A stretch of DNA of 64,000 nucleotides from Nemertoderma westbladi (taxonomy: Eukaryota; Animalia; Xenacoelomorpha), in contig JAUCBJ010001698.1 of the NCBI GenBank assembly GCA_032718475.1, positions 13,117-77,116 of the forward strand, written 5' to 3'. Numbering within the stretch: the stretch's first letter is position 1; each line of letters opens with the position of its first letter. The translations under genes were made by a program, and so were the position numbers. The notes below the pieces were generated by a model. It was not told the DNA's origin. It made no database searches and worked only from the letters and a program-made list of their open reading frames with translations. Of this stretch, positions 15,418-50,882 are shown piece by piece.

Positions 15418-16003
15418 TCTGAATAATAAATATTGCGCTACGCGTACAGACTTCTCAAACAAAATACAGACAAAACGCTGGCAGACCACTATCAAGCCTA
15501 AACAAACTACAGTATATGCAGACTCCGAAATGGTTAGTTAGTATGCGTTCTAACCTAGTAGCACGACTTATTCTTTCGGGGGGGATTCACCTTACAACTC
15601 AAGATGCCCCCACGTTCCTAACTGGTACTTTATCGGACATACACTCTACACACACTGCAACCTCTTCAGACCTAACAACAGCCAGACAACAGTCCAGCCT
15701 ACAAATTATCTGAATAAGAAATATTACGCTACCCGTACAGCCTACACAAACAAAATACAAACCAAACGCTGGCAGACTACTATCAAGCCTAAACAAACTA
15801 CAATATATGCAGACTCCGAAATGGTTAGTTAGTATGCGTTCTAACCTAGTAGTACGACTTATTCTTTCGGGGGGGATTTACCTTACAACTCAAGATGCCC
15901 ACCACGTTCCTAACTAGTACTTTATCGGACATACACTCTACACACACGGCAATCTCTTCAGACCTAACAACAGTCAGACAACAGTCCAGCTTACAAATTG
16001 TCT
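15418..16003. repeat. Tandem duplication, two ~291-bp units, in the leader/U5 region of A
   Basis: TCTGAATAA..GCAGACTCCGAAATGGTTAGTTAG..CAGTCCAGC repeated at ~15418 and ~15709. Confidence 0.9.
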
Positions 16004-16282
16004 GTACAATCTGAGCAGGCTTACACGCCTTCTGCTCAATATTAGCCTACAAATAAATAAAACTGACAGAAATAAGTAAACCATACAAAGGAATAAGGGG
16101 TGATCAATCCCTAATCCCCTAATAGCCTACAATATACAATATATCACAATCGAAATAATACTAGTATCTGTACTGGTGTAAGTACCGGTCCGGGTGGTTA
16201 GGTAGTTGGGCCTACTGGTTACCGGTCGACCGGTACTTTTCAACTTTATTGCCTACTGCAATAAAGAAGCAATGACTGTTAT

Positions 16283-17488
16283 TGTTCGCGCTTTCAGACC
16301 TTTAGCAGTTTAACCTGCCAAATTTAGGTGTCTTCTAAGTTATAAATCGACTTTAGCCTATGACGAGTATTTGATACACTACATTAGCCGAAGCCAGCCT
16401 ATGCGCGACCATTCACCCGCTGGATATACCCGGGAGACTGGATACGGAAGCTCTGACCTTATTGCGGTGTAGGCCTACTGTATTATTCGATTGATCGTTA
16501 ATATATAATCTCTGACAAATATTATTCACTTTCGGGAAATACTAACAGTTCCTTTAGGACGTGGCGCTCTAAATATATAAACAGAGTTATGACTTATACT
16601 AAACACAACGGGATGGCTAATGATTCACGTATAAGGCGCATTCTTTAGGAGATGCTTTGTTATCTGTCACAGTCATGCACACTACCGCACAATGCTGCAC
16701 ACCGATCTGCCGACCTTCACTAATTTTAGTCACATATAAAGAGAACAGCAATTGACACCTGTAGTGCCTATGAAATAGCATTAGATTCACTCCAAAACCA
16801 ATATCATATAAGTCGCAATTGCTATATGTAACCGGTCTCTTACCTTCAGTATATCAAGAAGATGGGGTTTTATGATTATTTATGGATATTATCCAAATAT
16901 AACAATATTCCATCAACAGATACAATTAATAACCGACAGTAAATAGCAGTAAAATAATGCGGTGAAAGGTATGTATAGCATTTGAGTCTGACCAGTTTGG
17001 TTTGATATGTGCTGACTTGATATGGTTTGATAACAGTTATACGTTTCGGTAATCAAAGCCGTTCTAATGTTTGGCTAAAGTCTGAAACACAGAATAATTC
17101 CATAGCCGATGTTCTGGCATCAGGAAAAAAGGTAAACATAAACCATAATGCATTGCGCGATTTCCCGGAGGCCTCTGTGCAAATAAAATGAAAATCGCTC
17201 TGATTGGTCGAGTGAGTGAACAGAGTGAGCCTGAACAAAGAAAGCTCCACGAGTACACTAAATCAGCTGATAGATGTCGTAATCTGAACTACACTGTATT
17301 AAGAGTATTTTGGCGCATTGCGACACAAAATGGCTTGTTATGTCCGCCAAAGTACACATACAGAAAAAACAGCTTTTTATGTCCGCTAAACACCGATACA
17401 GTAAGAAAACGGCTTTTTATGTCCGTTATAACATCTACAGAGTACTTTGCAGGGAAAATGACTAGCTAATTCCGCAAAAGCCTTTACA
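16283..17488 (-). repeat. 5' LTR of element A (minimum extent; inner boundary uncertain)
   Basis: Outer end fixed by the match to 1-315; clear similarity to C 3' LTR down to 16283, weaker similarity continues further left; CCAAT on the minus strand near 17202. Confidence 0.7.
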
Positions 17489-19182: not shown

Positions 19183-19830
19183 CCCTATCTGGCTCGGGCT
19201 ATATTTTACAACGTAATTGGCCCGGGGGGCTATTTTACAATTTTTTTAGATCTTAGCTCAAAAATTACAATTTTGATGGGATAAGGGTTTTTGAGGTCGC
19301 TGATCACAATAAAAATTGTTAAAAATATTTTCTGTCAATGCAAACATCATTTTTGATGCTATTTCGGTCCTCCAGGACGAAAAGTACAAGTAAAAAAATG
19401 TCAAACTAAAAAATTTTGTGTTTGGTTTGATAATTCTGAAAGTATACGGATTTTAGATGTCCCTGGTCCCAATGAAACTACAGTAGTTAAAGATTTCTGG
19501 TAATGCAAACCCAATTTTTTTACATTTCTGGTGCCCCAGAACGAAAATTACAAGTAGCACACAATTATAAAGTGTTAAATTTTGCCAGAAGCTGCACTGA
19601 TTTTCAAGGTCGCTGATCACGATACAACTCGTTTAAAATCATTCTTGGTAACGCAAATATCATTTTTGGTGCTTGCCTGGTGGGACGAAAAATACAAGTT
19701 TAGTATAAAATTTCAAACGGCAAAAATCGAATTTGTTTGGATAATGCGATATTGTTAAGTGTCATATTCGTAATCAGCGTCCCAGAAAACACATAATGTA
19801 TAAAAATGAGGTTGATTTGGTAATGATGTT
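19183..19830. mobile_element. piggyBac-like non-autonomous element, left part (split by element B)
   Basis: Begins TTAA|CCCTAT; internal GGTCGCTGATCAC repeats; the repeat unit reads through across the B insertion site. Confidence 0.55.
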
Positions 19831-19957
19831 TATAGAATTATATTCTCTAAATGCCGTGGATTTTCAAAATTTTATTTTATTCGAATTAACTTTGTAAAAG
19901 ATTGCTTTGAATCCTCATTTGTATTTGTTATATCTATTGTACGCCTATTGGTCAAGT

Positions 19958-20044
19958 GGTTCAGTAGCTCAGTCGGTAGAGCGTTGGAAATTATATGTGT
20001 AGTAGGTATTGAGTTCGAATCCTAGTAAGAGCGAATTATTTTTT
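19958..20044 (+). other. tRNA-like cassette (Pol III A box, B box, T-run) in the LTR; copy at 36805-36891
   Basis: TAGCTCAGTCGGTAGAGC (intact D arm/A box), GAGTTCGAATCC (B box), followed by T6; acceptor and anticodon stems do not pair. Confidence 0.7.
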
Positions 20045-20101
20045 GTGCAGAATTTCAACTCATTTAAATTAACCGCTACAAATTAATTGCATTTGTCTGT
20101 A

Positions 20102-20383
20102 CCAATGAGACTGTAGTTATTTGATTGTAACCAATGTCGTGCAAGTTATATATTAGCTGGACCAATAGCTATCTTTAAAACCCTGTTAGAACCTATAGAA
20201 CAATCGAGAATTTTCTCGATTGATTGCAGCACAAATTTGCTATATAAAGGTGCGATTTGTTCATTAGTTATTCAATCTTCAATCTTATACATCTCAGTAT
20301 TTACATTCATTATCTCAGTGCATTCTATCTATATCTTTCTGATCTTATTAGTTATTATCTTATCTGTTTGATTTTGTAATAAA
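20102..20383 (+). promoter_or_regulatory. LTR Pol II promoter and polyadenylation signal
   Basis: CCAAT at 20102, 20131 and 20162; palindrome CAATCGAGAA-tt-TTCTCGATTG at 20201-20222; TATATAAA at 20241; AATAAA at 20378. Confidence 0.65.
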
Positions 20384-22624
20384 AGTTAGAAATACTTGTC
20401 AATCTCAGCCCTTTTCTATCTGTTTTACCATGATTCACTACGGTGAACAAACCTAAGGGACAGGATGGCCGGCCAGAGATCGGGCCGCAGCAATGAACGG
20501 GAACATCGGGGGAATGTAGACGAGAGACAACCCGCAATACCATCTTGAGTTATTCGCCCATCGCCTGAAAGGTTAGACAGCGTTCGACGCCTTGCTACCT
20601 AAGTATAAGACCAAAAGATCATAAGGTAGAAGTAGTGGCACGCTGTGAGCCTAAAATTACATCTTAGGGACTGTACTGTCTTGATTCAGGAAAAAACCAC
20701 AGTAGACCTTCATATTCCTACGGGGGGGGGGGAGAGCGCAGGCAGATACTAGTACGCAGATAGGACGTAGGCACACCGGTACGAAGCATACAAATTGGTA
20801 GGGTGCAGCAAACTGTACGCCTAACTCTTGCTAAGTACAGGTGTGTGTGCGACTATTTGTAGTACGACAGTGTCCATTGCATTAGAACTTGTAGGCTAGG
20901 GGGGTTGCTGTGTTTTCACCTGAATTGGGATTGTACCGTTCAGGCGGTAGGGCAGTTTACAGCTAGGCGCAAATAAATTGAGGCTATTAGGGATACTAAC
21001 ATCTACCGTGTCCCCGCCAACGCCCAAATAGGAAGTTACCCGGACTACCTGGGTGACTAAAATTCTAGATAGGAGCCAGGATAGCTATTAGTAACTGTAC
21101 GCCTACAGTAGTAAACTAACACATCTCTTCTTAGTATCAGGGACCTGGTACCTAAAATTGCCGAATTCTGGGCGTAGCATTAACCTTATGCCTGAATTTG
21201 AGTCCTGGAAATACGCAAGAGGGGAAGGAACCTTATCATTCGTGAGTATTGGACCTACAAGTTACAAAATTAGAATATTCGTAAAATGCACACCGTACCC
21301 AGTAATTATATATGTGAAGGAGCAAAACTGTCTTTGACCGTTCAGAATTAACACACGCGCGTTAGAAATTATTTACACCTCAAAATATATAAAATTAACT
21401 TTCGTCCGTACTGTGCTTTGCCCGCTAGTTAGACATCTCCAAATCTCTGCCTGTGTACCTAGCTAGCGTCCTTTCGCCCAACCATATAAATCACACCGCG
21501 GCAAAGTGTACGAGCCTCTTAGTCCGTCAGTGAGTCAGCCTGATTTTAGGATTCGCTGCGCGGGATTTTGTTTCACCGAAGTTTGTCTGCTCGTAGACTG
21601 TTTTCTGCCTCACCGGTTATAAGAGATCAATACTGCAATATATTCGCTTACTTAGTTTACTGTTTTGGTGAGAAGGTCGGATTTATGATTTGATTCACAA
21701 ACTTTACAGTAGGATATTGCAGGTATTGTTACTGTCTCTTCCATATAGTAGGAATAGGCGTATCTCTTCCAATAGTAGGAATATGATTATTTTAACATAT
21801 TTCCTAGAATAGTAGGAATATGTTTTACTGAACTACGGTTCGGTAGGACTAAAGTTATTTGAAAATTTTGTATTTTGAGGTAAAAATTTATATTTGATTA
21901 GCTAAGTGCTAATATTTTGAAAAAAAAAAATTTGATTTGAACCGCGTGTAAAATATTTTGGAATTGAATACCGGTGTTTAAAAAAGGGTTTAAATACCAT
22001 ATTGTACCGGTACAAAATTTTTCGTAAAAGTAAAACCTAACTCTTTTGTTTTTCAGGATTCAGAACTCATTTCTAGACTGTAACGGGAGCAAGACCGTGT
22101 TTAGCAAGTTTGGGAGATAGATAACTCAACAACTTTGGTTGGGAAAATCGCGTTTCGTCCGCAACGTTAAAAACGGAAAGGTTCACGTCCGGTTTGTATC
22201 TGGGAATCTGTTTTTCTGGAGAATTATTGGAGTGGGTGAGTTCAAAAAGTTGCATAAATAAGTTAGGCATTACCGTATTAGTTAAAATTATTGTGGGTTC
22301 CACTGTCTCAAGTATTTATGCATTCCGTATGATTTCTTTGTTCATTGCTGAATTAGTCCGTATTATTGTATTTAATTTACCTTTTGATAACGCATATCGT
22401 TATCCGATTTATTTGTTATAAAATTGGCCACTAGGCTAATTTTATTATATACTTATTCCGTGACATTTATTTGCTGTAAAATTGGCCGTTTAGGCTAATT
22501 TTATCCATCTGCTATAAAATCGGCCGGTAGGCTAATTTTATAAGACTGTAATTAGTACCGTTTAGATAAAATACGGTAAGTTTGATACTTTGACACTCAC
22601 TTTACTTGACTTACAACTACCGAA

Positions 22625-25600
22625 ATGAGTGACAAACAAAACTATACGAAAAATACACAAACCGACTATGACTCATGTGACGCGGATAAGTCAGCAGCGG
22701 AAGAACAACAGGGGAAGACTCGCGAGCCTACCGAACCTACACCGTGTGCGTCACCAGTACATCCAACGGGAGTACCGGATGCCGTAGTACGAGGCGACGG
22801 CAGGACCAAGGACTTTCTAACTGTTCCGCAACCTAGATACAGGGAAACGGACATGGTGAGTTCAGCAGGAAGTCAGGAAAGCGTTGTTAGGAGCGTCGGA
22901 GGATACATGGCGCATATTACCAGGAGTATTGGAGAAGGCCAATGCGTATTAGACGAGTTGACTGCGCCGATGTCTCGATTCGAGTTCTACACCCTCCAGG
23001 TGAGAGTACAGAGTAAAGTATATAAGTCCGTAGATAACCTAATTGGTCTACAAGATCTAGCTAGACAGAGACAGGACATGGATACTCAACTTAGAATCCT
23101 CGAGAAACTAATGATCGCTAGAGAGAAACTGATTCAGTTTAAGTCGACGATTAGACACATACAACAGGAACAAGCGGACCAGTTGTTAGGTGAGTCAGTT
23201 TCGGACGAATTATTACAGCCCGAGGAAGAACAGGAACTGTACCGACTGGATGGACAATTGAAACATCTGACGGACCACTTACGTATGTGCGGCGAAGACG
23301 TCGGCGATTCGGAAACCGTACCGGAATATACGAGGGAAACTTCACCCGTACGAATCGAATCGGCACCGGGAATACTGGACCAATCGTTAGTGAGTATTCG
23401 CAGCGAAATTGGCGAGATAAGTATAGTGACGTCAGAAATTTCCAGACAGCAACAACAAGTGGATAGACAACAACGGGAAGCGGAGGAACAAGCTCAACTG
23501 TTGACGGCACAAGGAGCCGTACAAGAAGAAAAACTACGCGTTGCGGATGTTGCAAGAATCTCTCATCTGCAAGAACAAGCCGAGTTGGAAGCGGCTGAGA
23601 TGGAAAGGTTGGAGCTAGAAATAGCACAGCGAACAGCGGCAGCTGAGTTAGCGCAACAAGCGGCAGCAGCTGAGTTAGCGCAACAAGCGGCAGCAGCTGA
23701 GTTAGAACGACAAGCGGCAGCAGCTGAGTTGGAAGAACACAAGCGAGTTTCGGAAGCAAGAGCTGAAATGAAAAAACGGCAAATAAAGGCTCAATCAGTG
23801 ATAAGACAAGCGGAGCTCGAGGCGCAACAACGACAGACGGAACAACGCGAGAAGGAAGTTAAACTTCATTTCGAACTCGGGAAGAAGGCGAGAGAATTAG
23901 CCAACGCGAAGGAAGATCTGGATCTGCAAGCCCGCGATCGATCAATGAGATCTCGAGACGGACATGACTTGGACCAGATAGAGGTAAGACATCGCCAAAT
24001 TCAGGAATGGAAGAAGGAAGGAAGCGTAGGAGCACCCGGACGGGAACGACAATTAGTAAAGGACTTGTGTCAACGATTCCCACAGGTAACTCATATGTTT
24101 GCACCGGTTACGACTAAGGAACCTGTTTCGATTGCGGGTAGTAGTAACATTTATCCTATCCATGGTGCGACGGAACACAGGTTTGTTATTCCGGACGAGT
24201 TTACACCGCCAAGAGCAACGTCGTCGCCTATTCCGAAAGTCAAGGTAAGTAACCCACCGATTACAGATCGTAGTAGTTTATTAGTCGAACCTGTATTACT
24301 GACGACTAAACAGGTGAGTCCACCTCTGACGCCAAAACCTGTTACACACTACGCTTACCCAATGACGTTTAGGCCAACAAGGCCTTTGGATTCAAACGCT
24401 GTTACTCGACCACCGGTTCAGTTTACATCGCAATCTACGACTTCGAGGAAGACTTGTGAGCCTACCGAACAACAGAGAACAGTGGATACGCGACCGTTCA
24501 ACCAATTTACATCGCAATCTACGACTTCGAGGAAGACTTGTGAGCCTACCGAACAACGGAGAACAGTGGATACGCGACCGTTCAACAAATTTACATCGCA
24601 ATCTACGACTTCGAGGAAGACTTGTGAGCCTACCGAACAACGGAGATCAGTGGACGATGTTCCAAAGCGAAACGTTAGAATTCGTACGACGCAATGGACG
24701 CGAGCACGTCGACCACCATATCCAGATGATAGTAGTACTTCGAGCGAATCGGATTACCCGAAACGCGAGGTATTTAGAACAGGGGCGGCCGATGAATACA
24801 AACGCGAGCGTTCAGACAACTCCTTTGTAGACAATCCTCCACAGAATACACCAACACAGAAGGCGTTACAACCAACGAGGCAAATCAGTACACAACAGTT
24901 CGCCGACATCCTGCGACCAGTTGTTAACAAGTTGGCTCAGATCGAGGAGCGTCTGGAGGAAGTTCAAACCGACAGTTCGAGGAACACTGAGTTCGAACAC
25001 AATAGACACCCGAAGGAACCACAAAGACCGGTACCTTCAAAACACACATCGTATCAGGGAAAAGCGCCAAGAAGGGAGAATATCAACCTGGTTACCAACC
25101 AAGGACGCGAAACTCTGAACGTTGCCGAGGAGATAGCGAAATTCGCAGCCAGACAAGGATTGCCGGTACAACAACCACCGAAGTTTTCCGGTAGCTCAAA
25201 ACACTGGCACACTTTCGTAGACTATATCGAATCCCAGATCGCCATGTGCGCCTTTACATCACGGGAGAAGTTCAATTACCTGCTCCAAACGTTGTCAGGA
25301 GAACCTAAACGTTTGGCAGAGACTTTCGTCGGTGTACCGGACGCCTTCGAACTAGCGTACGATCGTTTAACTTCGATATATGGAGGTACAGTCAGTATGG
25401 CCAGGTCAGTAATAGAGGAACTCTGTAAGGGAGGGGCTATCACTAAACCCGTCGACTTATTAAAACTGGCCGACGAGATAAAGAACGCTATCACTACTTT
25501 AAGATCCATTGGACAACTTGACTACGGGAATACCCCTACAGTCCTATTAAAGATCATAGGACGACTCCACCATCGACTTCGTCGGGAGTGGAGAAAGATC

Positions 25601-28600
25601 GAATACCAGCGAGAAGAGCGGGGTGGATTCTTAAAACTAGAGGATGTGTACCTTTTAATATCCAGGGAGGCAGTAGTAGAAACTCGATCTAACTACACTG
25701 ACCAGCACATCGTGGCAGAAGGAATCACATTGCCATCCTCCAACCGACAAAAACCCCAGACAACATCCACTAAGACGGCCACTTACACCACACCGACGGA
25801 ATCACGACAATTCTCGGACGGTAGTAGGGTATCTGCGCCCATTGGGACAAAACAGACGAGACAACAACTCGGTACCGACTTCAGCGGCTGCCAATACTGC
25901 GAGCATCTAGGCAAGCGGTATATCGGTCACAAGTTGAGGGGTTGTCGACAGTTTCGCGAGTTGAACTCGGAAGAACGACGGCTGCAGATACGGCCACTGG
26001 ACTCTTGTTGGCGGTGTACGCGACACGGACACGTCCGTAAAGATTGCCCAAATACCGACACTTGTCCATCCTGTGGACGCAACCACGACGGTCTGCTCCA
26101 CACAGACAGCCACACACCGACAAAACGCTTCGCCAGGGAACACCCGGAAGCAGCAGCGAGATGTGATGCGGCCTACAGAAAACGAGAATCGAAAACGACT
26201 CCAACCTTCGTGACCCATATTGAGGATTGCTTCTCAGAACAACCCGGATCGTCGGACGAAGAGTCAGAAGACGACGACGTATATTCGGATGGAGATGAAC
26301 AGCCATCGATCGCGCTTCTGACTACTGACCAACTAAAGGGATTTAGTGTAATTCCGATTAAGATTACCGGCACAAAGGGGAGTAAAAGAATCTACGCGAT
26401 TCTAGATTCAGCCTCATGTCACAGCTACGTGGATGAAAAGATAGCTGACGTCGTGACGGATCTCAGACAAGGTAAGCGCGTCAGTTATACCGTAAGTAGT
26501 ATGCACGGACTACGTGCAATACCAGTGACACGAGTCAAGTTAAACTTAGACTCTCTTCTTCCGAAATCGCAACACAGCGAGAGGGAGAGGTCTTTGTTAC
26601 CCTTCAAGGATTTGACCTTTGCGGCCACAAAAGACTTTAGTAACCTACTAGGTCCGGTCCCAGAACAATCCTTGGAGGACCGTAAGTATTTCAGACACCT
26701 TGGTGTACCAGAATGTCCTGTCAATTATAGATCGGTAGCCATGCTGATCGGGACAGACCAATTCAACCTACATCAAGTGTGGGAAACCAGACCATCGGCA
26801 GTCGTAGCGGGAAACGCATACGCCTGCAGAACGCCGATAGGGTGGTATACTCGAGCGCCTGTGCGCACACTGGACATAAGTGAAGAGGAAGACGATGTAC
26901 GAAGTACATGTAGTTTATTAACTACAAATTCAATTCATTCCTTCTCACACGACGTGAACCATACTACACTACAGTCGACAAAACGTGACAGACGTGTAAC
27001 TAGTATGATAAGTCACAAGGAGCAGCTAATCCACCAGCGGAGTTTAGAACTTGGGGAGAAGACGAGTCAGCTAGAGATTCCATCGACGACAGATGATAAC
27101 GCCGGAAGGCTTGCGAGTCTACCTACCCCAACGACATCAACAATGCCCGTCGAGATCGATGATGACGCGTTGAGAAATCATCAAATGGAACAAGCTGCAC
27201 TGGACAAAGAATTAACGGAGAAGACTATCAGGTGGTTAGAACAAGATACAGCTGAACCTGGTAGCTACGAACCTTGTATGTCGGAACAGGAGAAACAATC
27301 TCTGAAGATCATGGAAGATACTATCCGACAGACGGAGGACGGACATTATGAGGTAGGGATGTTATGGCGTAGCCAAAGTCCTAAACTCACAAATAACTAT
27401 CCACTGGCTTTAAGACGTCTACACTCAATACGGCAACGTCTATTAAAGGACGAGAAAGCCCATCTGCAGTATAACACTCAGATGGAGACGTATTTGACTA
27501 AAGGATACGCTATCCGAATGACTAACCCAGAGATAGTGACTGACCAAACATATTACTTGCCACATCACTATGTGAGACACCCCGACAAACCAGATAAAGT
27601 ACGCGTAGTCAATGACTGTGCGGCTCTGTTTGAGGGAATGTCCCTCAATAGTGAGTTGATGGATGGACCAAACATGAATAATTATCTTATGGGGGTGATT
27701 ATGCGCTTCCGTCAGCGTCAAGTAGCTTTTACTTGTGACGTTGAAGCGATGTTTCACCAAGTGAGAGCGTTAGAGCGAGACAGAGACAGTTTGCGGTTCC
27801 TCTGGTACCTGGAAGGAGACTTAAGTCTACCACCGGCGACTTACCAAATGCAAGTTCGCGTTTTCGGTGCCAGAGACAGCCCAAATTGCACGATGTACGC
27901 CCTAAAACAAGCCGCTAGAGATCAGAAACATCTATATGACCCAGAGATAATTAAAATCGTAGAACGTGACTTTTACGTAGACGACGGATTACAGAGTTGC
28001 GACACAGTAGAACGTGCTACAACAGTAGCACATCAATTACGGGACTGCTTAGCGGGCGGAGGTTTTAACCTCACCAAATTCGCCTCAAACAGTGCCGAAT
28101 TAGTAGACTCATTCGGAACGACTGAGCGTGGAGGTGGTGACATAGACCTAGAGTTCGAACCACTACCGACGACCAAGGTGTTGGGGCTCTTTTGGGACCC
28201 AAACACGGACAACTTCCGAGTGAAAGTAAGACTGGACAGTCAAGAAAACACACTGACAAAGAGATCATGCTTGTCAAAATTGAGCCGATTGTTCGATCCG
28301 TTAGGATTCATCAGTCCAGTAATACTGCAAGCCCGCATTTATATGCGCAGTATTTGGAAGGATGGACTAACATGGGACGAGCCGATCTCATCAGACCAAG
28401 TGGACTTATGGAAGACCTGGGAGGCGGAATTATCTTCGCTAGAGGATTATTCCATACCCAGAGTTTACTTTCCATTACAAAGTACATTTCCTGACAACTT
28501 GGAACTACACTGTTTTTCTGACGCCAGTGACAACGGTTTTGGTGTGGCAGCGTACTTGCGCAGACAAGTAGACTCAGAAGCATTCGATGTTTCGCTCATT

Positions 28601-31378
28601 ACTTCTAAGGCAAAAACAATGCCTACTAAGTATATGACGACACCACGAGCTGAGCTACAAGCCGCAACCCTGTCAACCACCATCGTGAACCTCATACAGA
28701 CAGAACTACAGTCAAGTTTACAGATATTTTATTGGACTGACGCGACGTTGGTTTTATTTTACATAAACAACGACACGCTTGAATTCAAGACATTCGTAGC
28801 TAACCGTCGCGCAGAAATTCTAGATCGTTCAATAAAAGAGGATTGGCGACATTGTCCCGGACCACAAAACCCAGCTGATATTGCGTCGCGAGGAATGATG
28901 CCTGAGGAATTCTGTAAACCGGAAAACAAAGAATTTTGGCAACACGGACCCCAATTCTTGCAGAAATCGACGCAAGATTGGCCACCGTTATGCGACAACA
29001 AGTCTAACACCATCCCTAAGGACGCCGAAATCAAGAAACCAAAAAAGGGGAAGGCAAAGAAAAAGACGACGGCGGCAAAACTCAAGAAAAAACCGAAGGC
29101 GAAATGGAAAGATATAACTTCAAAGGTCAAGAGAGGAAGACTTGCGAGCCTTTCTACACCAGACATATCGCCAGACGGTCAACCAGACACGTTACTAGAC
29201 GGTCAACCAGACGTTTTGTCAGACATATCACAAAATGTTCTACCAGACACTAGTAACATATTGACAAACAGTAAAGCCGCAGCTTCCCTATTGGAGCGGC
29301 CTTCTGTTGACAAACAACCAGATACGTTACCAGACGTATCGCCAGACACATTACTAGACAGTCGACTAGACATTTTGTCAGAAACATCACAAAATGTTCT
29401 ACCGGACATTAGTAATGTATCGACTAACAGTAAAGCCGCAGTTTCCCTATTGGAGCGGCCTTGTATTGACAAACTACCAATTTTGACACACTTGAGCAAC
29501 CATAAGCATGGTGAAACCTCATGTATTACAGATGTGGGTAGTACCTACGCTAATGTAAATACAGGTGTTACTCTGCGCTCAAGAGACATACCAAACTTGC
29601 AACCTATGGTGAGACCTGGGATTAATATCGGCAGAAAAATAAGCTTACCGAAACCCACTGACCCCATAGAGTTCAAACCACCATTAACGATCGACTTACA
29701 AAGTACTGACAATCAAGGTAAGAAGACGAAGAAGGACAAATTACTTGTAGACCCGGATGGATCAACAGTCAACAAGGGAATACTTACCGGCGGACCCGTG
29801 GGCCCTTCTAGTAATTCAAAACCTTCCAAATTCTCCATTGACTTACCTGATGACGTCACAAATACTTACGTCGACCGTATTGTAAACCTAACAGATTCTT
29901 GGACGAACGCTTGCCGAAAATTAGCGTGGATTGTACGTTTTGTACAATACGTTAAAGGCAAACGCGACTTTACACATCGACTTACATTGGCTGAGATTGA
30001 CAGGTGTGAGATTAAATTAATTCGCCATTACCAACTGCGATATTTCGCGCGCGAATTCACATCTATAAATCAAGGTCAACCAATCAAGTCGTCACCAATA
30101 CTGAGTTGGAGTCCGATTATTTATAATGGCTTAATTTGTCATAAATCTCGGCTTCAAAACATTGACTTTAACACAAACTTTAGGTACCCAATAATAATAC
30201 CGCAACATCACGAACTACAACGTGCAATGATACTGGACGCACATTTACATCTGAAACACGCTGGAAGACACCACTGTCTTTCCTACTTACGTACAAGATT
30301 TGTATTAATTAGACCCAGTAAAGCGTTAAGTTCAGTGACACGTACGTGTATTATTTGTAAAAAGGTACATTCTAGAATAGGTACCCAAGAAATGAGTGAA
30401 CTTCCACAAGCACGACTTCAAGCATTCAGACCACCTTTTACAGAGACTGGAATTGATTGCTTTGGTCCCATACATACGAAACGTGGACGTATACTAGTAA
30501 AACGCTGGGGACTGATTTTCACATGTATGTCCAGTAGGGCAGTTCACATTGAACGTGTGATGGATCTTTCCACCAACGCGTTTATACTAGCACTGCGGCG
30601 ATTTATCGCTAGACGCGGACTAGTGAAATGCTTGTACTCAGACCAAGGGACAAACTTTGTTGGTGCTCGAAATGAGATTGCTAGAGCCTTTAAGAAATTA
30701 GATCATGATCAAATCTCGAACGAACTGCAACCTCACAAGATTGTTTGGAAGTTCAATCCTCCAGATAGTCCTTGGAGAGGCGGAGTCTGGGAGAGATTGA
30801 TTAGATCTATAAAGACGGCAATGGCAAAGGTCATTCCAGTAAACCACATATTGACAGATGACCAACTGACGACACTGTTTGTTGAAATCGAGGCAATACT
30901 AAATACTAGACCAATAGTATTAGTACCCGATGACAAACAATCTCAGTTCGCTTTGACACCGGCACACCTGCTTATGCAGGCACCGACCATATTGACACCT
31001 ATTTCTATTCCAATAGAAAGCGACAGCTACAGTAGAAAAGCGTGGAAAATCACGCAACTACTAGCTAACAAATTCTGGGAAATATGGCAAAACCATTATT
31101 TGCCCTCTATTTCTGCCAGAACAACATGGTACAATAACACCCGCGCATTAAAGCCGGGAGATCACGTGCTGTTAGCGGAAGTGAATCTAAAAAGACGCTT
31201 CTGGATAACAGGTGTAATTTTAGCCACACATCCATCTATGGATGGAGTGACAAGAACTGTGACGGTACGGACAATTGACGGTCGTACAGTAGACAGACCG
31301 ACTCAACGTCTCGTACTTCTTGAAGAGACTCGTAACGAGTCTGGAGACTACAAATCTCCACCTAATACTAGTAAATAA
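22625..31378 (+). CDS. Element B gag-pol polyprotein, 2917 aa, intact
   Basis: Coiled-coil N-terminus; PPKFSG..REKFNYL gag; three Cys/His knuckles; protease AILDSAS; RT YYLPHH, CDVEAMFHQV, FYVDD; RNase H FSDASD, PRAEL, WTDA, NPADIASRG; integrase HHCC, GIDCFGP, SDQGTNF, WRGGVWERL. Confidence 0.97.
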   Translation: MSDKQNYTKNTQTDYDSCDADKSAAEEQQGKTREPTEPTPCASPVHPTGVPDAVVRGDGRTKDFLTVPQPRYRETDMVSSAGSQESVVRSVGGYMAHITRSIGEGQCVLDELTAPMSRFEFYTLQVRVQSKVYKSVDNLIGLQDLARQRQDMDTQLRILEKLMIAREKLIQFKSTIRHIQQEQADQLLGESVSDELLQPEEEQELYRLDGQLKHLTDHLRMCGEDVGDSETVPEYTRETSPVRIESAPGILDQSLVSIRSEIGEISIVTSEISRQQQQVDRQQREAEEQAQLLTAQGAVQEEKLRVADVARISHLQEQAELEAAEMERLELEIAQRTAAAELAQQAAAAELAQQAAAAELERQAAAAELEEHKRVSEARAEMKKRQIKAQSVIRQAELEAQQRQTEQREKEVKLHFELGKKARELANAKEDLDLQARDRSMRSRDGHDLDQIEVRHRQIQEWKKEGSVGAPGRERQLVKDLCQRFPQVTHMFAPVTTKEPVSIAGSSNIYPIHGATEHRFVIPDEFTPPRATSSPIPKVKVSNPPITDRSSLLVEPVLLTTKQVSPPLTPKPVTHYAYPMTFRPTRPLDSNAVTRPPVQFTSQSTTSRKTCEPTEQQRTVDTRPFNQFTSQSTTSRKTCEPTEQRRTVDTRPFNKFTSQSTTSRKTCEPTEQRRSVDDVPKRNVRIRTTQWTRARRPPYPDDSSTSSESDYPKREVFRTGAADEYKRERSDNSFVDNPPQNTPTQKALQPTRQISTQQFADILRPVVNKLAQIEERLEEVQTDSSRNTEFEHNRHPKEPQRPVPSKHTSYQGKAPRRENINLVTNQGRETLNVAEEIAKFAARQGLPVQQPPKFSGSSKHWHTFVDYIESQIAMCAFTSREKFNYLLQTLSGEPKRLAETFVGVPDAFELAYDRLTSIYGGTVSMARSVIEELCKGGAITKPVDLLKLADEIKNAITTLRSIGQLDYGNTPTVLLKIIGRLHHRLRREWRKIEYQREERGGFLKLEDVYLLISREAVVETRSNYTDQHIVAEGITLPSSNRQKPQTTSTKTATYTTPTESRQFSDGSRVSAPIGTKQTRQQLGTDFSGCQYCEHLGKRYIGHKLRGCRQFRELNSEERRLQIRPLDSCWRCTRHGHVRKDCPNTDTCPSCGRNHDGLLHTDSHTPTKRFAREHPEAAARCDAAYRKRESKTTPTFVTHIEDCFSEQPGSSDEESEDDDVYSDGDEQPSIALLTTDQLKGFSVIPIKITGTKGSKRIYAILDSASCHSYVDEKIADVVTDLRQGKRVSYTVSSMHGLRAIPVTRVKLNLDSLLPKSQHSERERSLLPFKDLTFAATKDFSNLLGPVPEQSLEDRKYFRHLGVPECPVNYRSVAMLIGTDQFNLHQVWETRPSAVVAGNAYACRTPIGWYTRAPVRTLDISEEEDDVRSTCSLLTTNSIHSFSHDVNHTTLQSTKRDRRVTSMISHKEQLIHQRSLELGEKTSQLEIPSTTDDNAGRLASLPTPTTSTMPVEIDDDALRNHQMEQAALDKELTEKTIRWLEQDTAEPGSYEPCMSEQEKQSLKIMEDTIRQTEDGHYEVGMLWRSQSPKLTNNYPLALRRLHSIRQRLLKDEKAHLQYNTQMETYLTKGYAIRMTNPEIVTDQTYYLPHHYVRHPDKPDKVRVVNDCAALFEGMSLNSELMDGPNMNNYLMGVIMRFRQRQVAFTCDVEAMFHQVRALERDRDSLRFLWYLEGDLSLPPATYQMQVRVFGARDSPNCTMYALKQAARDQKHLYDPEIIKIVERDFYVDDGLQSCDTVERATTVAHQLRDCLAGGGFNLTKFASNSAELVDSFGTTERGGGDIDLEFEPLPTTKVLGLFWDPNTDNFRVKVRLDSQENTLTKRSCLSKLSRLFDPLGFISPVILQARIYMRSIWKDGLTWDEPISSDQVDLWKTWEAELSSLEDYSIPRVYFPLQSTFPDNLELHCFSDASDNGFGVAAYLRRQVDSEAFDVSLITSKAKTMPTKYMTTPRAELQAATLSTTIVNLIQTELQSSLQIFYWTDATLVLFYINNDTLEFKTFVANRRAEILDRSIKEDWRHCPGPQNPADIASRGMMPEEFCKPENKEFWQHGPQFLQKSTQDWPPLCDNKSNTIPKDAEIKKPKKGKAKKKTTAAKLKKKPKAKWKDITSKVKRGRLASLSTPDISPDGQPDTLLDGQPDVLSDISQNVLPDTSNILTNSKAAASLLERPSVDKQPDTLPDVSPDTLLDSRLDILSETSQNVLPDISNVSTNSKAAVSLLERPCIDKLPILTHLSNHKHGETSCITDVGSTYANVNTGVTLRSRDIPNLQPMVRPGINIGRKISLPKPTDPIEFKPPLTIDLQSTDNQGKKTKKDKLLVDPDGSTVNKGILTGGPVGPSSNSKPSKFSIDLPDDVTNTYVDRIVNLTDSWTNACRKLAWIVRFVQYVKGKRDFTHRLTLAEIDRCEIKLIRHYQLRYFAREFTSINQGQPIKSSPILSWSPIIYNGLICHKSRLQNIDFNTNFRYPIIIPQHHELQRAMILDAHLHLKHAGRHHCLSYLRTRFVLIRPSKALSSVTRTCIICKKVHSRIGTQEMSELPQARLQAFRPPFTETGIDCFGPIHTKRGRILVKRWGLIFTCMSSRAVHIERVMDLSTNAFILALRRFIARRGLVKCLYSDQGTNFVGARNEIARAFKKLDHDQISNELQPHKIVWKFNPPDSPWRGGVWERLIRSIKTAMAKVIPVNHILTDDQLTTLFVEIEAILNTRPIVLVPDDKQSQFALTPAHLLMQAPTILTPISIPIESDSYSRKAWKITQLLANKFWEIWQNHYLPSISARTTWYNNTRALKPGDHVLLAEVNLKRRFWITGVILATHPSMDGVTRTVTVRTIDGRTVDRPTQRLVLLEETRNESGDYKSPPNTSK
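23635..23731 (+). repeat. 27-bp coding tandem repeat (AAAAELAQQ-like) in gag
   Basis: GCGGCAGC(AGC)TGAGTT repeated 4 times. Confidence 0.85.
24417..24655 (+). repeat. 84-bp coding tandem repeat, ~3 copies, in gag
   Basis: FTSQSTTSRKTCEPTEQ.R.VD repeated; motif starts at 24447, 24531 and 24615. Confidence 0.92.
29160..29480 (+). repeat. ~159-bp duplication in the long RNase H-integrase linker
   Basis: SQNVLPD.SN..TNSKAA.SLLERP..DK occurs twice. Confidence 0.85.
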
Positions 31379-32040
31379 TTAGGAGTTTACAAATAGATTT
31401 CCACGTACCTGTACACCGTAGTAAGGACAGCGGTAGAATTCCATTGTCTTTATATGTGAACATTGAGGGTAGTACCCTTATGTGTCATATAGGAGCGGGA
31501 TTTGTAGGTATAAGAAATGGAATTCTACTTGGAACTCACAATATTGAGACATTTTCGAAAATTTAGACAATCCATTTGGATTTGAAAAATTTTTAAAAAT
31601 TTTCTCCAGTGAATAGATTTCAGGGTACAGTCGGGTGGAACTTAAAATTAGAGAAACAAGAGAGGAAGACTTGCGAGCCTTTCTTAAAATTTTTAATTAA
31701 ATTTTACACGGTCTTGTTTCAATAAGTTACGTCAAAATAGACTCCCCTATATTTATTTACTAATTCTTGACTGCTTATTTTCTGATAATAGTTTGGGATC
31801 AAAAAGTGAGTATTTTAGACTCACAGCCAGTTTAGCCCAAATTCGTTTTTATTTCGGCAAAAAATTTTAGATAAGAAGCAGCGTGTCATTAAAGAAACCC
31901 TAGATCTTAGGCTATGGGTAGGAGGTTAGAGCGTTGTCGAGCCCAAAGGGCAGACGAAACTCTCACGTCTCCTCACAACTAACTACAAACTCTGTTGTAT
32001 TCCCTCTAGTAGTAATGATTATGTAACTACACCCCTAATT

Positions 32041-35000
32041 ATGGAGAAAGGGATACAAGGAGAGCCGAGATGGGGATATGATATCCAAGAGGAGGCAGCA
32101 GCGCCATTCGAAAGATTTGGAGCCAAGGACTACACTATATTTGGTATAAAAGAATTATCGGAAAGTACAGCGAAACTCGCGAGAACTAAATATGACTCGA
32201 ATGTATTAAAGAGAAGACAAAACGCATTAAACGAAAGAATCGAAAGTTTGCGTCAAACCTTCAATGAACTTTACCCGTACGACGCTTTGTGTGATACGGG
32301 AGACATTAGCGAAGACCCCGATACTGAAATTAGTCGTTTGTATCATACCATGCAATACCTAAAGGCACACGAACCTATGCCCGCGGTAAGAGATGAATTC
32401 GATGGAATGCATCTTTACAGACGAACTCGAGGGGACGATAGAGAAACCAAGGAAGCATTTTCAGTTTATAAACTTTATTATCAATGCGGTTCTTGAATGC
32501 GCGAACAACGAAATGCGATTCCGATGCGTTTGAATAAGGAAAATCCCGAACCGATATTGGCGAGGTGTTCGAATCATCAACAACTACGCTACCAGGAAGG
32601 AGGGTATCCTTTATCGAATCCATATCATTCATTTGCTATGACCGGACCAAAGGCGGGAGAAACTGTCATTTACCCACCTAAGGTTGTTGAACCCGATGTA
32701 TTTGAACTTACGCTGGACGAGGCGAATCAGTCAACCCGCGAAAAGAAAGAAGCTCTTAGCCTATACAGAGCCTACAAGGCTTTCGAGAAAGGTGAGATGG
32801 AAGAATGGGGTGGAAGACTCGCGAGCCTACCTTGCCATTGGACGTCACACGATCAAACTTCAGCTAAGGAGATGACACCGGAAGTTTTCGAGAGCATAAA
32901 CTTTGCTCAAAACGTTATTCAGAGACTACAGATTGCATCCCCGGAGAGGACAAGAGAAATGCAACCGTATAGTACTTCAACTACGAAACCATTGAGTACG
33001 ACACTCAACTTTCCTATTAGTATACCAGTCCGACAGGATACGACGTACGAAATACCCATCGTGGATCATCCAGAAATCATTTCAAACTTGGAGTTTCTTC
33101 CTGCAGTTGTTTTCAGCGATATGAGTAAGATATATGATTTACGTAGACATATTACTCAAAAGGTCGTGTACAACGTTCCACCTCATATTCAAGATTTCAA
33201 GGAACTGGATAGAGCTGGTGCCGATATAGCTCCGAGTAATCTGAAAGGATATCTAACCGAGACGATTCGTTTATGGATTGGAACCGGAACCTTCGAGTCG
33301 GATACAGATATTGCCGCAGATTGGCGAGGTAAGGTTATTCGTTTCGAAGATGATAAGGATATAGAGAAGATTTGGCAACCTTCGGAAGAATTGTTGGATG
33401 AATGGAATAGGACGTTCAGATCGTTTCAGGAAAATGGTAACATGTTTTACGATAACGAGGGCGGCAGTCATCAGCAGAGTTTGACTTCTAAGACTATACA
33501 GATTAGAGCGGCGGACGGAGTCCTGCACGTTTTCAGTAGACAGAGGAGCGACAAACGAATGCCGATACCTCCAGCGAATACAAAGCGACACCATCTTATC
33601 ACCGATATAGTAAAGAAGATGGACCAAGCTTGTAATATTGACGCTAGAATGCTACCGAAGATGGTAAGAAACATGATTTTAGATAAAACTGTTGTAAAGA
33701 TTGGATCAGGAGTAAGGGAGGATTTAATTAGCGACTTCGCCGGCATGACGGACAGCGATGACCGACTACCGACACCTTACGTCGACACTCGACCTCTTAT
33801 CTTGTGGTCTATAGAACAGGGATATTTTCGTGAGTACAATACTCAGAAGACTGGAACTGGGTACATTTCCTACCTGTTATTCAATTGGGATTATAAGGAA
33901 AATAAGAGAAACAAGTATATTGAAACTTATGGAGAAGGTGATACTCCAGATATGAGTGAGTTTGAATCACAGCTTAAATGGAGAGGATGCGTGTATTGGG
34001 CCATTACGTCACCTCCAAGAGCGGTCTTACAATATTATTTAGCAATAGAGTCGTCAGTGAATGTTTGCTTAATCGCCGACATTGTGTCTCGGACTCTCAA
34101 AAGACATCCACTTTGTCTCGGAGAAGATCATACGTTCTACATGGAAGGGAGAATTCGTACCGACGTGTTTAGACGATTCCTTGAACCCTTCTACAACTCC
34201 GACGCTCAGTGTAATGCCTTTACTCGAGCAGGATTTAGTATATTTCGAGACGTGTATCTTCGCTGTGCGGGATCTCTTATCGAAAGACCATCTATGTTTA
34301 CATTGTTACCCTATGAAGGAGAACGTATCGTGGAGATTACGGAAGAATCACGGCAGACGCGCGCGCCTATCGGTCACCTTGGTGATGATTTCGAAGTAAC
34401 TACTACGATCGCTGACGATCCTTTAGAGGAACTTCTTGAGATAGAAAGGAACCTCCCGAAGAAATCTCAGACGGAGATTCGACAACTTGAAGCAACAGAT
34501 GCTATAGTTTGTATACAACCTTCAGAAACCTACCAACCCATAGACCCAGATGATTACGATTATAGTATGGGAGGAAGCGCTCGACCGATTGGAGATCTTA
34601 TATACGAACGAGTGTGGTACCCTGCCAATACGATGTGTAGTAAATGTGGCGTCGCTGGACATCATATGACAAAGTGCAGTGGAAAGCACATTACTACGAC
34701 TCAGCTAATCTGTGGATGGTGTGGGGATCAAGGGTCTCATACATTTTATACTTGCTGGAGATTTATGGCTCAATGTACTTACTGCAATATAAAGGGACAT
34801 CGAGCATCTGAATGCCAATTAAGAGACATACCTTATGAACACGAATCTGTAAAACTCGTGAGGAAATTATTCGATGAGTGGGAAGATTTAGCCGACGAAC
34901 ATGTATCGGCACAAAGAAGACGGTTTCCGATGAGAGCGCATCTCGGATTTTGGGCGGTAAATCCCCAGACGATGATGTCGGAAGGATACATCTCCGCTAT

Positions 35001-35766
35001 GCCCCAATATGACGAACTTATCGAGGTTGTCGATATTTTGCCCCACGACAGCGGATTCCGAGTGGTGCGCAAGTATCTACTACAGATTCACCCGGATAAC
35101 AAAAACACGTGGAATTTTCAGAAAGTCGTTAATCGCATTACGTATGGTGAATTCGATCGTTTCCGAACCGAAAGGCGGAACAAAGGAGCTTGGTTAACCG
35201 TCGCATGGGCGTACCGAGCCGCGTTTTACCATAAACGTATACGAGCGAGCGTATTCGAGGAAGAGGAGGTCCTAGAGGCGACAAATATACCAGCCACTCC
35301 GGTTGCGCTGTCTGCACGTCACCCTCGGGAGGACGGGCAGGGTAGGATCATACGGGTCCAAAAGGTGGGCCAACAATTAAAGAAAATTATTAATGTAGAA
35401 GAACGCAAGGGAGTTGAGCCGACTATTCGAGTTACTCGGGATACGGTATCACTTCCAAGAGAACCAGTAGGAGGATCGGGACATACACCAGCTGATCAAC
35501 AGGGGGCGCAAGCTACTCTTGGGTCTGCGTCGTCCGCTTCTCGCGTGTTCCCAGACGTTCTACCAACTGTAGTGACGACTGATCGGTCACGAGGAATCGG
35601 TCGAGGTTTTGGGATGCCAAATAGACGAATTTGCGAGGAAATAGTCGCACCGTCTCTCAACGTCCCAAGTAAACCAGTGACTCGCCCCACGAGTCCCATA
35701 TCGCGAGCAAAGTCACCTGTGCGCAGTTTTCGAGGACGCGGCAGGGCTCGATCCACTAAGCGATAA
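32041..35766 (+). CDS. Element B ORF2 (~1241 codons with one in-frame TGA at 32494-32496): DEDDy-like 3'-5' exonuclease, three CCHC knuckles, Arg/Gly tail
   Basis: ORFs 32041-32496 and 32497-35766 are in one frame; FYDNEG..TIQIR, LPKMVRNMILDKTVVKIGSGVRED, YVDT, YLAIE; CSKCGVAGHHMTKC, CGWCGDQGSHTFYTC, CTYCNIKGHRASEC; homologous to A ORF2. Confidence 0.85.
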
Positions 35767-35829
35767 AAGGGAGGGCAAGGGTGGACGGAAGACTCGTGAG
35801 CCTTTCTTATGATTTGTGATTTATTTGAA

Positions 35830-36480: not shown

Positions 36481-36677
36481 TACTTACTTAGTAAAGCCTT
36501 AAATACGTAAAGTTTGAATTTGTAATTATTTTTGTATCGAATCATTACGTAGAAAGGAAGTATTGTTTGAAATTTAATTGTAAATATGTAAGTACGCCCT
36601 AAGTATTCTATAGTTTGATTGATTATTGGTGAAAACCGTATATTTATGCACGATAATATCCTGTTTTCATGGAGCGG

Positions 36678-38618
36678 TATAGAATTATATTCTCTAAATG
36701 CCGTGGATTTTCAAAATTTTATTTTATTCGAATTAACTTTGTAAAAGATTGCTTTGAATCCTCATTTGTATTTGTTATATCTATTGTACGCCTATCGGTC
36801 AAGTGGTTCAGTAGCTCAGTCGGTAGAGCGTTGGAAATTATATGTGTAGTAGGTATTGAGTTCGAATCCTAGTAAGTGCGAATTATTTTTTGTGCAGAAT
36901 TTCAACTCATTTAAATTAACCGCTACAAATTAATTGCATTTGTCTGTACCAATGAGACTGTAGTTATTTGATTGTAACCAATGTCGTGCAAGTTATATAT
37001 TAGCTGGACCAATAGCTATCTTTAAAACCCTGTTAGAACCTATAGAACAATCGAGAATTTTCTCGATTGATTGCAGCACAAATTTGCTATATAAAGGTGC
37101 GATTTGTTCATTAGTTATTCAATCTTCAATCTTATACATCTCAGTATTTACATTCATTATCTCAGTGCATTCTATCTATATCTTTCTGATCTTATTAGTT
37201 ATTATCTTATCTGTTTGATTTTGTAATAAAAGTTAGAAATACTTGTCAATCTCAGCCCTTTTCTATCTGTTTTACCATGATTCACTACGGTGAACAAACC
37301 TAAGGGACAGGATGGCCGGCTAGAGATCGGGCCGCAGCAATGAACGGGAACATCGGGGGAATGTAGACGAGAGACAACCCGCAATACCATCTTGAGTTAT
37401 TCGCCCATCGCCTGAAAGGTTAGACAGCGTTCGACGCCTTGCTACCTAAGTATAAGACCAAAAGATCATAAGGTAGAAGTAGTGGCACGCTGTGAGCCTA
37501 AAATTACATCTTAGGGACTGTACTGTCTTGATTCAGGAAAAAACCACAGTAGACCTTCATATTCCTACGGGGGGGGAGAGCGCAGGCAGATACTAGTACG
37601 CAGATAGGACGTAGGCACACCGGTACGAAGCATACAAATTGGTAGGGTGCAGCAAACTGTACGCCTAACTCTTGCTAAGTACAGGTGTGTGTGCGACTAT
37701 TTGTAGTACGACAGTGTCCATTGCATTAGAACTTGTAGGCTAGGGGGGTTGCTGTGTTTTCACCTGAATTGGGATTGTACCGTTCAGGCGGTAGGGCAGT
37801 TTACAGCTAGGCGCAAATAAATTGAGGCTATTAGGGATACTAACATCTACCGTGTCCCCGCCAACGCCCAAATAGGAAGTTACCCGGACTACCTGGGTGA
37901 CTAAAATTCTAGATAGGAGCCAGGATAGCTATTAGTAACTGTACGCCTACAGTAGTAAACTAACACATCTCTTCTTAGTATCAGGGACCTGGTACCTAAA
38001 ATTGCCGAATTCTGGGCGTAGCATTAACCTTATGCCTGAATTTGAGTCCTGGAAATACGCAAGAGGGGAAGGAACCTTATCATTCGTGAGTATTGGACCT
38101 ACAAGTTACAAAATTAGAATATTCGTAAAATGCACACCGTACCCAGTAATTATATATGTGAAGGAGCAAAACTGTCTTTGACCGTTCAGAATTAACACAC
38201 GCGCGTTAGAAATTATTTACACCTCAAAATATATAAAATTAACTTTCGTCCGTACTGTGCTTTGCCCGCTAGTTAGACATCTCCAAATCTCTGCCTGTGT
38301 ACCTAGCTAGCGTCCTTTCGCCCAACCATATAAATCACACCGCGGCAAAGTGTACGAGCCTCTTAGTCCGTCAGTGAGTCAGCCTGATTTTAGGATTCGC
38401 TGCGCGGGATTTTGTTTCACCGAAGTTTGTCTGCTCGTAGACTGTTTTCTGCCTCACCGGTTATAAGAGATCAATACTGCAATATATTCGCTTACTTAGT
38501 TTACTGTTTTGGTGAGAAGGTCGGATTTATGATTTGATTCACAAACTTTACAGTAGGATATTGCAGGTATTGTTACCGTCTCTTCCATATAGTAGGAATA
38601 GGCGTATCTCTTCCAATA
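36678..38618 (+). repeat. 3' LTR of element B (1941 bp)
   Basis: Direct repeat of 19831-21774, preceded by the PPT and followed by TSD ATGTT. Confidence 0.97.
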
Positions 38619-38623
38619 ATGTT

Positions 38624-38900: not shown

Positions 38901-39006
38901 TTCTCATTTTTTTGTAGCTAGTTTTAGTCGCTTCCATTTACTTTCTAGAATATCAGATATTATATATTATATTATACATTGAACAAATGACAATATATCC
39001 AGACCT

Positions 39007-39525: not shown

Positions 39526-39591
39526 AATACTAATACACATACGTTATGTGAACATACCTTTAGTCTGACAATTATTTCTATTTTATTTTAG

Positions 39592-50804: not shown

Positions 50805-50882
50805 CCGCTCCCAGAAAATGGGATTTAAGTCTATAAAATATATATAAAATCACAGTTTCGAATATAAAAATACTCTAAACTA

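Follow-up and report, generated by a model that had tools for sequence, protein, structure and literature searches.

An LTR-edge complementarity in a giant BEL/Pao retrotransposon of Nemertoderma westbladi as a possible site of self-priming

How does a retrotransposon start its reverse transcription when the site beside its long terminal repeat (LTR) does not match the usual form of a tRNA primer-binding site? The question is raised by element B, one of three related LTR retrotransposons (A, B and C) in a stretch of 64,000 nucleotides (nt) from Nemertoderma westbladi (assembly GCA_032718475.1, contig JAUCBJ010001698.1, positions 13,117 to 77,116 of the forward strand). We call this whole stretch the window and count all coordinates from its first letter. 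B, which we assign below to BEL/Pao, occupies 19831-38618 on the plus strand (18,788 nt). The initial annotation, made from the letters alone, had proposed that B lacks a tRNA site and primes itself through a self-complementarity. The profile of the International Committee on Taxonomy of Viruses (ICTV) describes BEL/Pao elements as tRNA-primed; their primer site, 18 nt long, is for tRNA-Arg or tRNA-Gly, their LTRs measure 0.2-1.2 kb and their genomes 4.2-10 kb (PMC8742986). One fly BEL/Pao element is primed by tRNA-Tyr (PMC4580426). Self-priming has been described in Tf1/sushi elements, and for the plant Tcn1 chromoviruses and the TAR (Houba, Osr-1) group of Ty1/copia it is a prediction (Neumann et al. 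2019, PMC6317226). By the rule used to predict self-primers, a word that begins 0-5 bp past the 5' LTR must find a complement of 10 bp or more within that LTR (PMC6317226).

The features that define the site in B are the following:

19831..21774, plus strand: 5' LTR of B, 1944 nt, TATAG...CCAATA (blastn against 36678-38618, edges read)
36678..38618, plus strand: 3' LTR of B, 99.64% identical to the 5' LTR (blastn)
20710..20721, plus strand: LTR word TCATATTCCTAC, the putative self-primer, with its 3' end at C20721; exact reverse complement of GTAGGAATATGA
21775..21786, plus strand: word GTAGGAATATGA at the position of the primer-binding site; exact complement of 20710-20721
37557..37568, plus strand: second LTR copy of TCATATTCCTAC, in the 3' LTR

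The initial annotation described this site correctly. The 5' LTR does end at 21774 with GTAGGAATATGA directly after it, the exact reverse complement at 20710-20721 is followed at once by a run of eleven G (20722-20732), GTAGGAATA is repeated at 21748 and 21812, and the site is not of the TGG type. A tRNA primer site, one of the marks by which BEL/Pao elements are recognised, is absent from B, since the 100 nt downstream of its 5' LTR hold no TGG at all; tRNA genes (ARAGORN) and RNA families (Rfam) were likewise sought in the window and none was found. A site that does not start with TGG is also a trait of the copia/Ty5 type of priming by tRNA halves; to our knowledge, an exact complement in the element's own LTR is not a feature of that class.

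Could such a pair arise by chance? There are 19 inverted pairs of at least 10 nt in the 2.8 kb of LTR and leader of B, and so the special feature is the position at the LTR edge, not the 12-nt inverted pair itself. When position is taken into account, mononucleotide shuffling of the LTR gave a complement of the 12-mer at offset 0 in 3 of 20000 cases, at offsets 0-5 in a share of 0.0019 of the shuffled LTRs, and at offsets 0-7 in 6 of 2000. The 12-nt complementarity is thus real and, in our judgement, very probably beyond chance. It agrees with the self-primer rule, having 12 nt at offset 0 where at least 10 nt at 0-5 nt are asked for.

The pairing extends beyond the two words, into the G-rich stretch that follows the first and the end of U5 that precedes the second:

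20722..20739, plus strand: G11 run and AGAGCGC, arms of the second and third helix (20726-20733, 20736-20739; RNAduplex)
21758..21774, plus strand: last U5 bases GCGT.TCTCTTCC.AATA, with the partner arms 21758-21761 and 21763-21770 (RNAduplex)

As calculated by RNAduplex, the structure consists of 12 bp, an internal loop of 4x4, 8 bp and then 4 bp (total -36.4 kcal/mol), the second helix joining the G-run at 20726-20733 with the last U5 bases at 21763-21770. When a target of 28 nt, made of the last 14 nt of U5 and the first 14 nt past the edge, was scanned against the LTR, the site at 20710 was the sole outlier (-29.6 versus -14.4 kcal/mol for the next best). None of 100 shuffled targets matched this value, the shuffles being scanned at a 6-nt step, which slightly favours the observed value. 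Taken separately, the second helix was equalled or bettered by 4 of 2000 shuffles of the U5 end paired with the G-rich arm.

Is the arrangement peculiar to B? Element A runs from the window start to 17488 and element C from about 49730 to beyond 61744. Both lie on the minus strand, as is clear from their matches to the B open reading frames (ORFs) ORF1, ORF1b and ORF2, which are all on that strand, from a polypurine motif on the minus strand and from the Pol match of about 43%. The reverse complements of 316-333 (A) and 50805-50822 (C) both read TTTTCTGGGAGCGG/TG (a slash marks an LTR edge), the same polypurine motif as TTTTCATGGAGCGG/TA in B, with a common GGAGCGG tract. The Pol of each is about 43% identical to that of B, and the layout of ORF1, ORF1b and ORF2 is alike. 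On the strength of strand, motif and Pol identity, A and C are therefore sister families with the gene layout of B. The rows that bear on this comparison are:

36664..36677, plus strand: polypurine-tract region TTTTCATGGAGCGG of B, followed by TA; motif kept in A and C
16457..16474, minus strand: LTR arm of A, GCCTAC-ACC-GCAATAAGG, about 30 nt after TATATAT (16507-16501)
16251..16266, minus strand: edge-straddling word of A, CTTTATTGC-A/GTAGGC, partner of 16474-16457; inferred edge 16257/16256

The initial annotation had been unable to locate an equivalent pair in A. Read on its proper strand, A has a 5' LTR that starts at 17488, with an inner edge at about 16257 (16257/16256, ...TTATTGCA/GTAGGC), and a pair is found at this inferred edge, its post-edge part being short (6 bp). 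As the 3' LTR of A itself is cut by the window start, the edge was set where similarity to the 3' LTR of C ends, and it was fixed before the helix scan; contig depth and loose ends gave no resolution of it. The same 28-nt scan in the A LTR again returned a single outlier, 16474-16457 (-24.3 versus -14.6), a value reached by 1 of 100 shuffled targets. The helix is in two parts: GCCUAC pairs with the six post-edge bases and, after a small loop, GCAAUAAGG pairs with the last nine bases of U5. This is the architecture of B built from other letters. The LTR arm of A lies 28-30 nt past TATATAT, at an initiator-like ACAGTA, and the RNA of A would be predicted to start there. Within the A family, positions 16472 and 16253, which are pairing partners in the 6-bp helix, are both polymorphic with alternative letters that are compensatory (shares over four runs of 17-54% at 16472 and 52-82% at 16253); because the contigs cannot link the two sites, we treat this as a weak lead. 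GTAGG is over-represented in both leaders, on the sense strand alone; 3 and 4 copies occur per 300 nt, as compared with about 1.3 per kb for the window. A primer made at a splice junction was considered for A and rejected, as its LTR holds no donor word such as TTATTGT. The leader of A has repeats of its own: TGTAGGCT occurs at least four times in 15700-16140 (minus strand), and there is a 296-nt tandem duplication (15418-15712 and 15709-16004).

More distant relatives were sought in metagenomes with a profile of the B reverse transcriptase and 20 homologues, which yielded 79 loci 33-42% identical to B. Their LTR pairs are mostly assembly overlaps, and an LTR edge could be defined in 8 of the 79. 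Three of the eight have a site of one kind or the other:

L017 (566-925): a word of 11 nt at offset 3; its exact complement lies 159 nt short of the LTR end (7 of 2000 shuffles)
L026 (6752-7204 with 1-125): GTAAAAACT, 9 nt, at offset 0; its complement lies 97 nt short of the LTR end (47 of 2000 shuffles)
L008: TGG-type word at offset 5

The complement in L017 is kept in both of its LTRs, which are 77% identical, and the first base of the LTR word in L026 is the A of TCAGTT, with ATTAAA following the word by about 25 nt. The remaining five of the eight relatives with a definable edge show neither an LTR complement nor a TGG-type site. An exact scan of the metagenome contigs for an LTR word of B gave no match, and a scan of viral_contigs with its reverse transcriptase gave no locus. 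The initial annotation had named a lack of the complementarity in sister families as a refutation, and the outcome is divided: the complementarity is present in A (at the inferred edge), L017 and L026, absent from five of the eight relatives and replaced by a TGG-type site in one. Sites complementary to the element's own LTR thus turn up more than once in this part of BEL/Pao, alongside sites of the ordinary tRNA type.

What do other copies of B retain of the pair? The family is highly repeated, as 6525 contigs of run X1 lie on a 3.2-kb stretch. Among the 40 listed of 145 letter variants in family copies, none falls inside either word, and the neighbouring positions 20696, 20727, 20731 and 20737 vary. 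A frequent family form joins 21767 to 21810 with CCAATT between them (3 contigs in X1, 2 in X3 and 1 in X4); copies without 21768-21809, in which a 37-nt segment of the present copy is gone, retain an 11-nt word, GTAGGAATATG, adjoining the LTR. A junction pattern considered for dead-end products was discarded as uninformative, being the minus strand of the normal junction. The segment in question is:

21787..21823, plus strand: copy-specific segment with a second word copy at 21812-21822 (11 nt) and a local hairpin (21797-21807 with 21813-21822)

The word belongs to a hairpin-like unit, TTCC..ATAGTAGGAATA, which is iterated three times around the LTR edge and leader of B (21746, 21772 and 21809). 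It is here that an alternative must be considered, namely that the LTR word is a functionless relic, an inverted copy of the reiterated unit that matches the edge by chance. Consistent with a relic are the repetition of the word at 21748, 21775 and 21812, the abundance of inverted pairs in the region, a second helix that ranks no higher than the top 7.6% of windows, and a G-run whose length is unlike in the two LTRs (G11 at 20722-20732 in the 5' LTR and G8 in the 3' LTR; the LTRs differ by four mismatches and one 3-nt gap in this run). A relic would not lead one to expect the shuffling results (3/20000, 6/2000 and 0/100), the same architecture in A with other letters (1/100), the complements in L017 and L026, or words free of the 40 listed variants while their neighbours vary, and we consider it very unlikely.

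Where the words lie in the RNA depends on the promoter, the poly(A) signal and a putative intron:

20102..20248, plus strand: promoter-like block, CCAAT at 20102, 20131 and 20162 and TATA box TATATAAA at 20241-20248
20378..20383 and 20972..20977, plus strand: AATAAA, candidate poly(A) signals; the choice between them decides whether the LTR word is in U5 or R
20572..22056, plus strand: putative leader intron, donor AAG/GTTAGA, acceptor with a long pyrimidine tract TTTTTCAG/G (slashes here mark splice sites); holds both words

The initial annotation had put the primer about 450 nt past the TATA box; the TATA box is indeed at 20241-20248, and the word lies somewhat further on, 460-470 nt downstream. 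A second candidate start is offered by the word itself, which opens with TCATATT, a fit to the initiator consensus whose +1 would be A20712; the LTR arms of A and L026 are likewise at predicted RNA starts. A single contig of X4, a run whose type we guessed, joins 20569 to 22055 with the label 'GT..AG (cut +2)', equivalent to 20571/20572 and 22056/22057. This joint argues for a transcript that starts upstream of 20571 and for an intron containing both words; no such 20571/22057 joint occurs in the X1 or X3 contigs. Suggestive steps in the X4 contig depth at both splice sites were set aside, as depth of this kind does not allow parts of a stretch to be ranked, and the contigs of run X5, guessed to be RNA, cover neither word. 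At the other end of the RNA, simple first strand transfer requires the word to be part of R; use of the poly(A) signal at 20972 would achieve this, and use of the one at 20378 would not. The stretch of the LTR just past the TATA box (20242-20455) varies, with contig joints 20269 to 20305, 20272 to 20402 and 20274 to 20418 that have no GT..AG ends. Upstream of the promoter-like block is a tRNA-like piece (19949-20046) whose A-box-like TAGCTCAGTCGGTAGAGC and B-box-like GAGTTCGAATCC are followed by a T-run; the piece may be derived from a short interspersed element (SINE) or be the remnant of an RNA polymerase III promoter. It was rejected as the priming tRNA, being not complementary to the site and not called by ARAGORN or Rfam.

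The position of possible RNA ends also bears on a different source of the primer. If the RNA were cut at a poly(A)-type site right after 20721, R would end at the word and the RNA 3' end itself could prime. The G-rich run after the word and the A-rich GAAAAAAC (20690-20697) about 30 nt upstream of it would suit such a site. What is missing is the signal, as there is no AATAAA or ATTAAA within 40 nt upstream (in the LTR, AATAAA occurs only at 20378 and 20972 and ATTAAA is absent), and no poly(A)-tailed forms are among the contig rows listed. We consider this reading very unlikely.

How, then, might B prime its reverse transcription? On the sequence evidence, self-primed reverse transcription with the duplex of 20710-20721 and 21775-21786 as primer and template is the best explanation, though we hold it no more than about as likely as not. 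In unspliced RNA, the LTR word would pair with the word right after U5, and the second helix (20726-20733 with 21763-21770) would help to hold the primer pairing. A cut directly after C20721, by the RNase H of the element as in Tf1 or by another nuclease, would create a 3'-OH flush with the LTR edge, from which the reverse transcriptase would extend through U5; the primer RNA on strong-stop DNA would end ...CAUAUUCCUAC, with LTR sequence upstream. The 5' piece released by the cut would be about 10 nt long if the RNA starts at A20712 and about 445 nt if it starts after the TATA box at 20241, a cut after C20721 being needed either way. First strand transfer would need R to extend past 20722, which the poly(A) signal at 20972 could provide, or else a forced switch to a second packaged RNA. 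Since both words lie within the putative intron (20572-22056), only unspliced RNA would be copyable.

Besides RNase H, the initial annotation had named as a possible agent of the cut ORF2, taken to encode an exonuclease:

31930..35766, plus strand: ORF1b, in-frame TGA (32494-32496) and ORF2; ORF2 of 1089 aa, with CCHC knuckles and possible DEDD-like motifs

We could not establish this activity. ORF2 has two or three CCHC knuckles (aa ~714-774), and when it is aligned with its counterparts in A and C and with P0123, D-x-E, D and Y-x3-E/D patterns appear in the same succession as in DEDD exonucleases, patterns which we take to be the motifs of that group. Its nearest ESM Atlas cluster combines PF01612 with zf-CCHC at a score of 0.84, which is beneath the tool's trust level. 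Pfam gave weak CCHC matches only, a sequence search of PDB gave nothing, and a profile search reached a 3'-5' exonuclease chain at a non-significant E = 1.6; the AlphaFold model (predicted local distance difference test, pLDDT, of 31) is unusable. Homologues are confined to A and C (27.5% identity) and three weak matches among 1.84 billion representatives, and none of similar length was found. The leads to an exonuclease activity of ORF2 are thus weak. The single TGA between ORF1b and ORF2 could be a readthrough site or a recent nonsense change. In its fullest form, the proposal would be that the primer of a giant BEL/Pao lineage is a word excised midway along its own long leader, rather than at the RNA 5' end, by RNase H or by the CCHC-knuckle protein of ORF2 with its exonuclease-like motifs, and that splicing of the intron decides between messenger and replication template; this we think improbable.

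Several observations weigh against self-priming in B. Five of the eight relatives show nothing and one has a TGG-type site. The word is part of the reiterated hairpin-like unit, and its LTR copy might be a relic. In B the arms stand 1053 nt apart, far more than the 97, 159 and about 216 nt of the relatives. For A, the LTR edge comes from comparison with C rather than from its own LTR pair, and just 6 bp of the pairing lie past it. The second helix is by itself not positionally special, 197 of 2601 other 30-nt windows pairing with the G-rich arm equally well or better. The best promoter-like block (three CCAAT and the TATA at 20241) is 465 nt upstream of the word, and the X4 joint likewise implies an RNA start upstream of it. 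Finally, AATAAA at 20378 would place the word in U5, and a cut there would leave strong-stop DNA without R.

The main rival explanation sees in the pairing a long-range RNA helix of the unspliced leader that would serve packaging or dimerisation, control splicing or mask the initiation site, and it takes the real primer to be a host RNA that binds at or near 21775. Such a helix would be comparable to the U5-leader and U5-inverted-repeat (U5-IR) stems of retroviruses. It would account for the two-part form, which includes U5 bases that a primer would not need, for the location of both arms in a putative intron, where they would mark unspliced RNA, for the balance of the A pairing (6 bp post-edge versus 9 bp in U5) and for the sense-strand enrichment of GTAGG in both leaders, and it would agree with the tRNA priming of published BEL/Pao elements in the ICTV profile (PMC8742986). 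It has to contend with the lack of a candidate host primer site, there being no TGG within 100 nt, and with the place of the pairing: a structural helix need not begin at the edge, yet pairing starts at the first post-LTR base in B and L026 and at offset 3 in L017. We regard a structural helix with a host primer as possible, if rather unlikely. As for self-priming, the proposal of the initial annotation holds in its observations (no TGG, a non-random 12 nt flush with the edge, and pairs in A and two of eight relatives); priming itself is an inference from them, the best explanation and in our opinion about as likely as not.

The assignment of B to BEL/Pao is based on its gag-pol polyprotein:

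22625..31378, plus strand: ORF1 gag-pol of B, with DUF1759 gag, Pao peptidase A17, integrase zinc domain and DUF5641 (Pfam)

ORF1 has 2922 codons from stop to stop, with an ATG at 22625. Its Pfam matches are PF05380 (4e-42, aa 1883-2044), PF03564 (6.6e-11, aa 859-996) and PF18701 (4.2e-20, aa 2811-2904), together with PF17921 at 21.6 bits, under its cut-off of 25.5. It is because ORF1 holds the gag, peptidase, integrase zinc and DUF5641 domains that we classify B as a BEL/Pao element. Two marks of the group are found in it, namely this domain set in one polyprotein and the combination of LTRs, target-site duplication (ATGTT at 19826-19830 and 38620-38624) and polypurine tract. The closest database proteins are from BEL/Pao elements of marine invertebrates, at no more than 43% identity. 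An additional A (38619) separates the 3' LTR from the duplication; the matching place after the 5' LTR has a G. B is inserted within another repeat, and 4 X4 contigs show the uninterrupted (empty-site) form of that repeat as a loose end. Ahead of the gag domain, ORF1 has an N-terminal extension of about 850 aa (window 22625-25150) with no Pfam match, which contains a helical stretch rich in glutamine, alanine and glutamate and three tandem repeats of about 28 aa (FTSQSTTSRKTCEPTEQ...). Between B and C lie about 11 tandem copies of a 43-nt unit (core 98-99% alike, 38930-39611) and a cluster of 161-nt direct and inverted repeats (43516-44275); no coding was found in either.

In light of this assignment, how does B compare with known systems? 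It resembles Tf1/Tf2 of fission yeast and the Tf1/sushi group of Ty3/gypsy in having no tRNA site, a post-LTR word complementary to its own LTR RNA, an adjoining second duplex with U5 and a proposed cut after the paired word; in Tf1, work from the Levin laboratory is said to have established that such a cut makes the primer. B differs in that its Pol domains make it BEL/Pao, outside the Tf1/sushi clade, and in that its arms are 1053 nt apart, its word is possibly about 435 nt inside the transcript and both arms are in a putative intron. With Tcn1 and TAR it shares agreement with the same rule (at least 10 bp, 0-5 bp), although these belong to another superfamily and host kingdom and are predictions too. 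With canonical BEL/Pao (Belpaoviridae) it has in common the Pao peptidase, DUF1759 gag, integrase with DUF5641, LTRs and polypurine tract, and it departs from them, as they are described in the ICTV profile, in its lack of a tRNA site, LTRs of 1.94 kb, length of 18.8 kb and extra ORFs. A search of full texts, with supplements outside its reach, found no paper that links BEL/Pao with self-priming.

If B does prime itself, self-priming would have arisen or persisted in a third LTR superfamily, and in an unusual form, with arms 1 kb apart and possibly internal to the RNA. Families of this kind would then be overlooked or wrongly assessed by tools that identify primer sites solely through a tRNA match. 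With different letters in two sister families, the structure described here is a concrete and testable one for how a retroelement chooses and cuts its primer.

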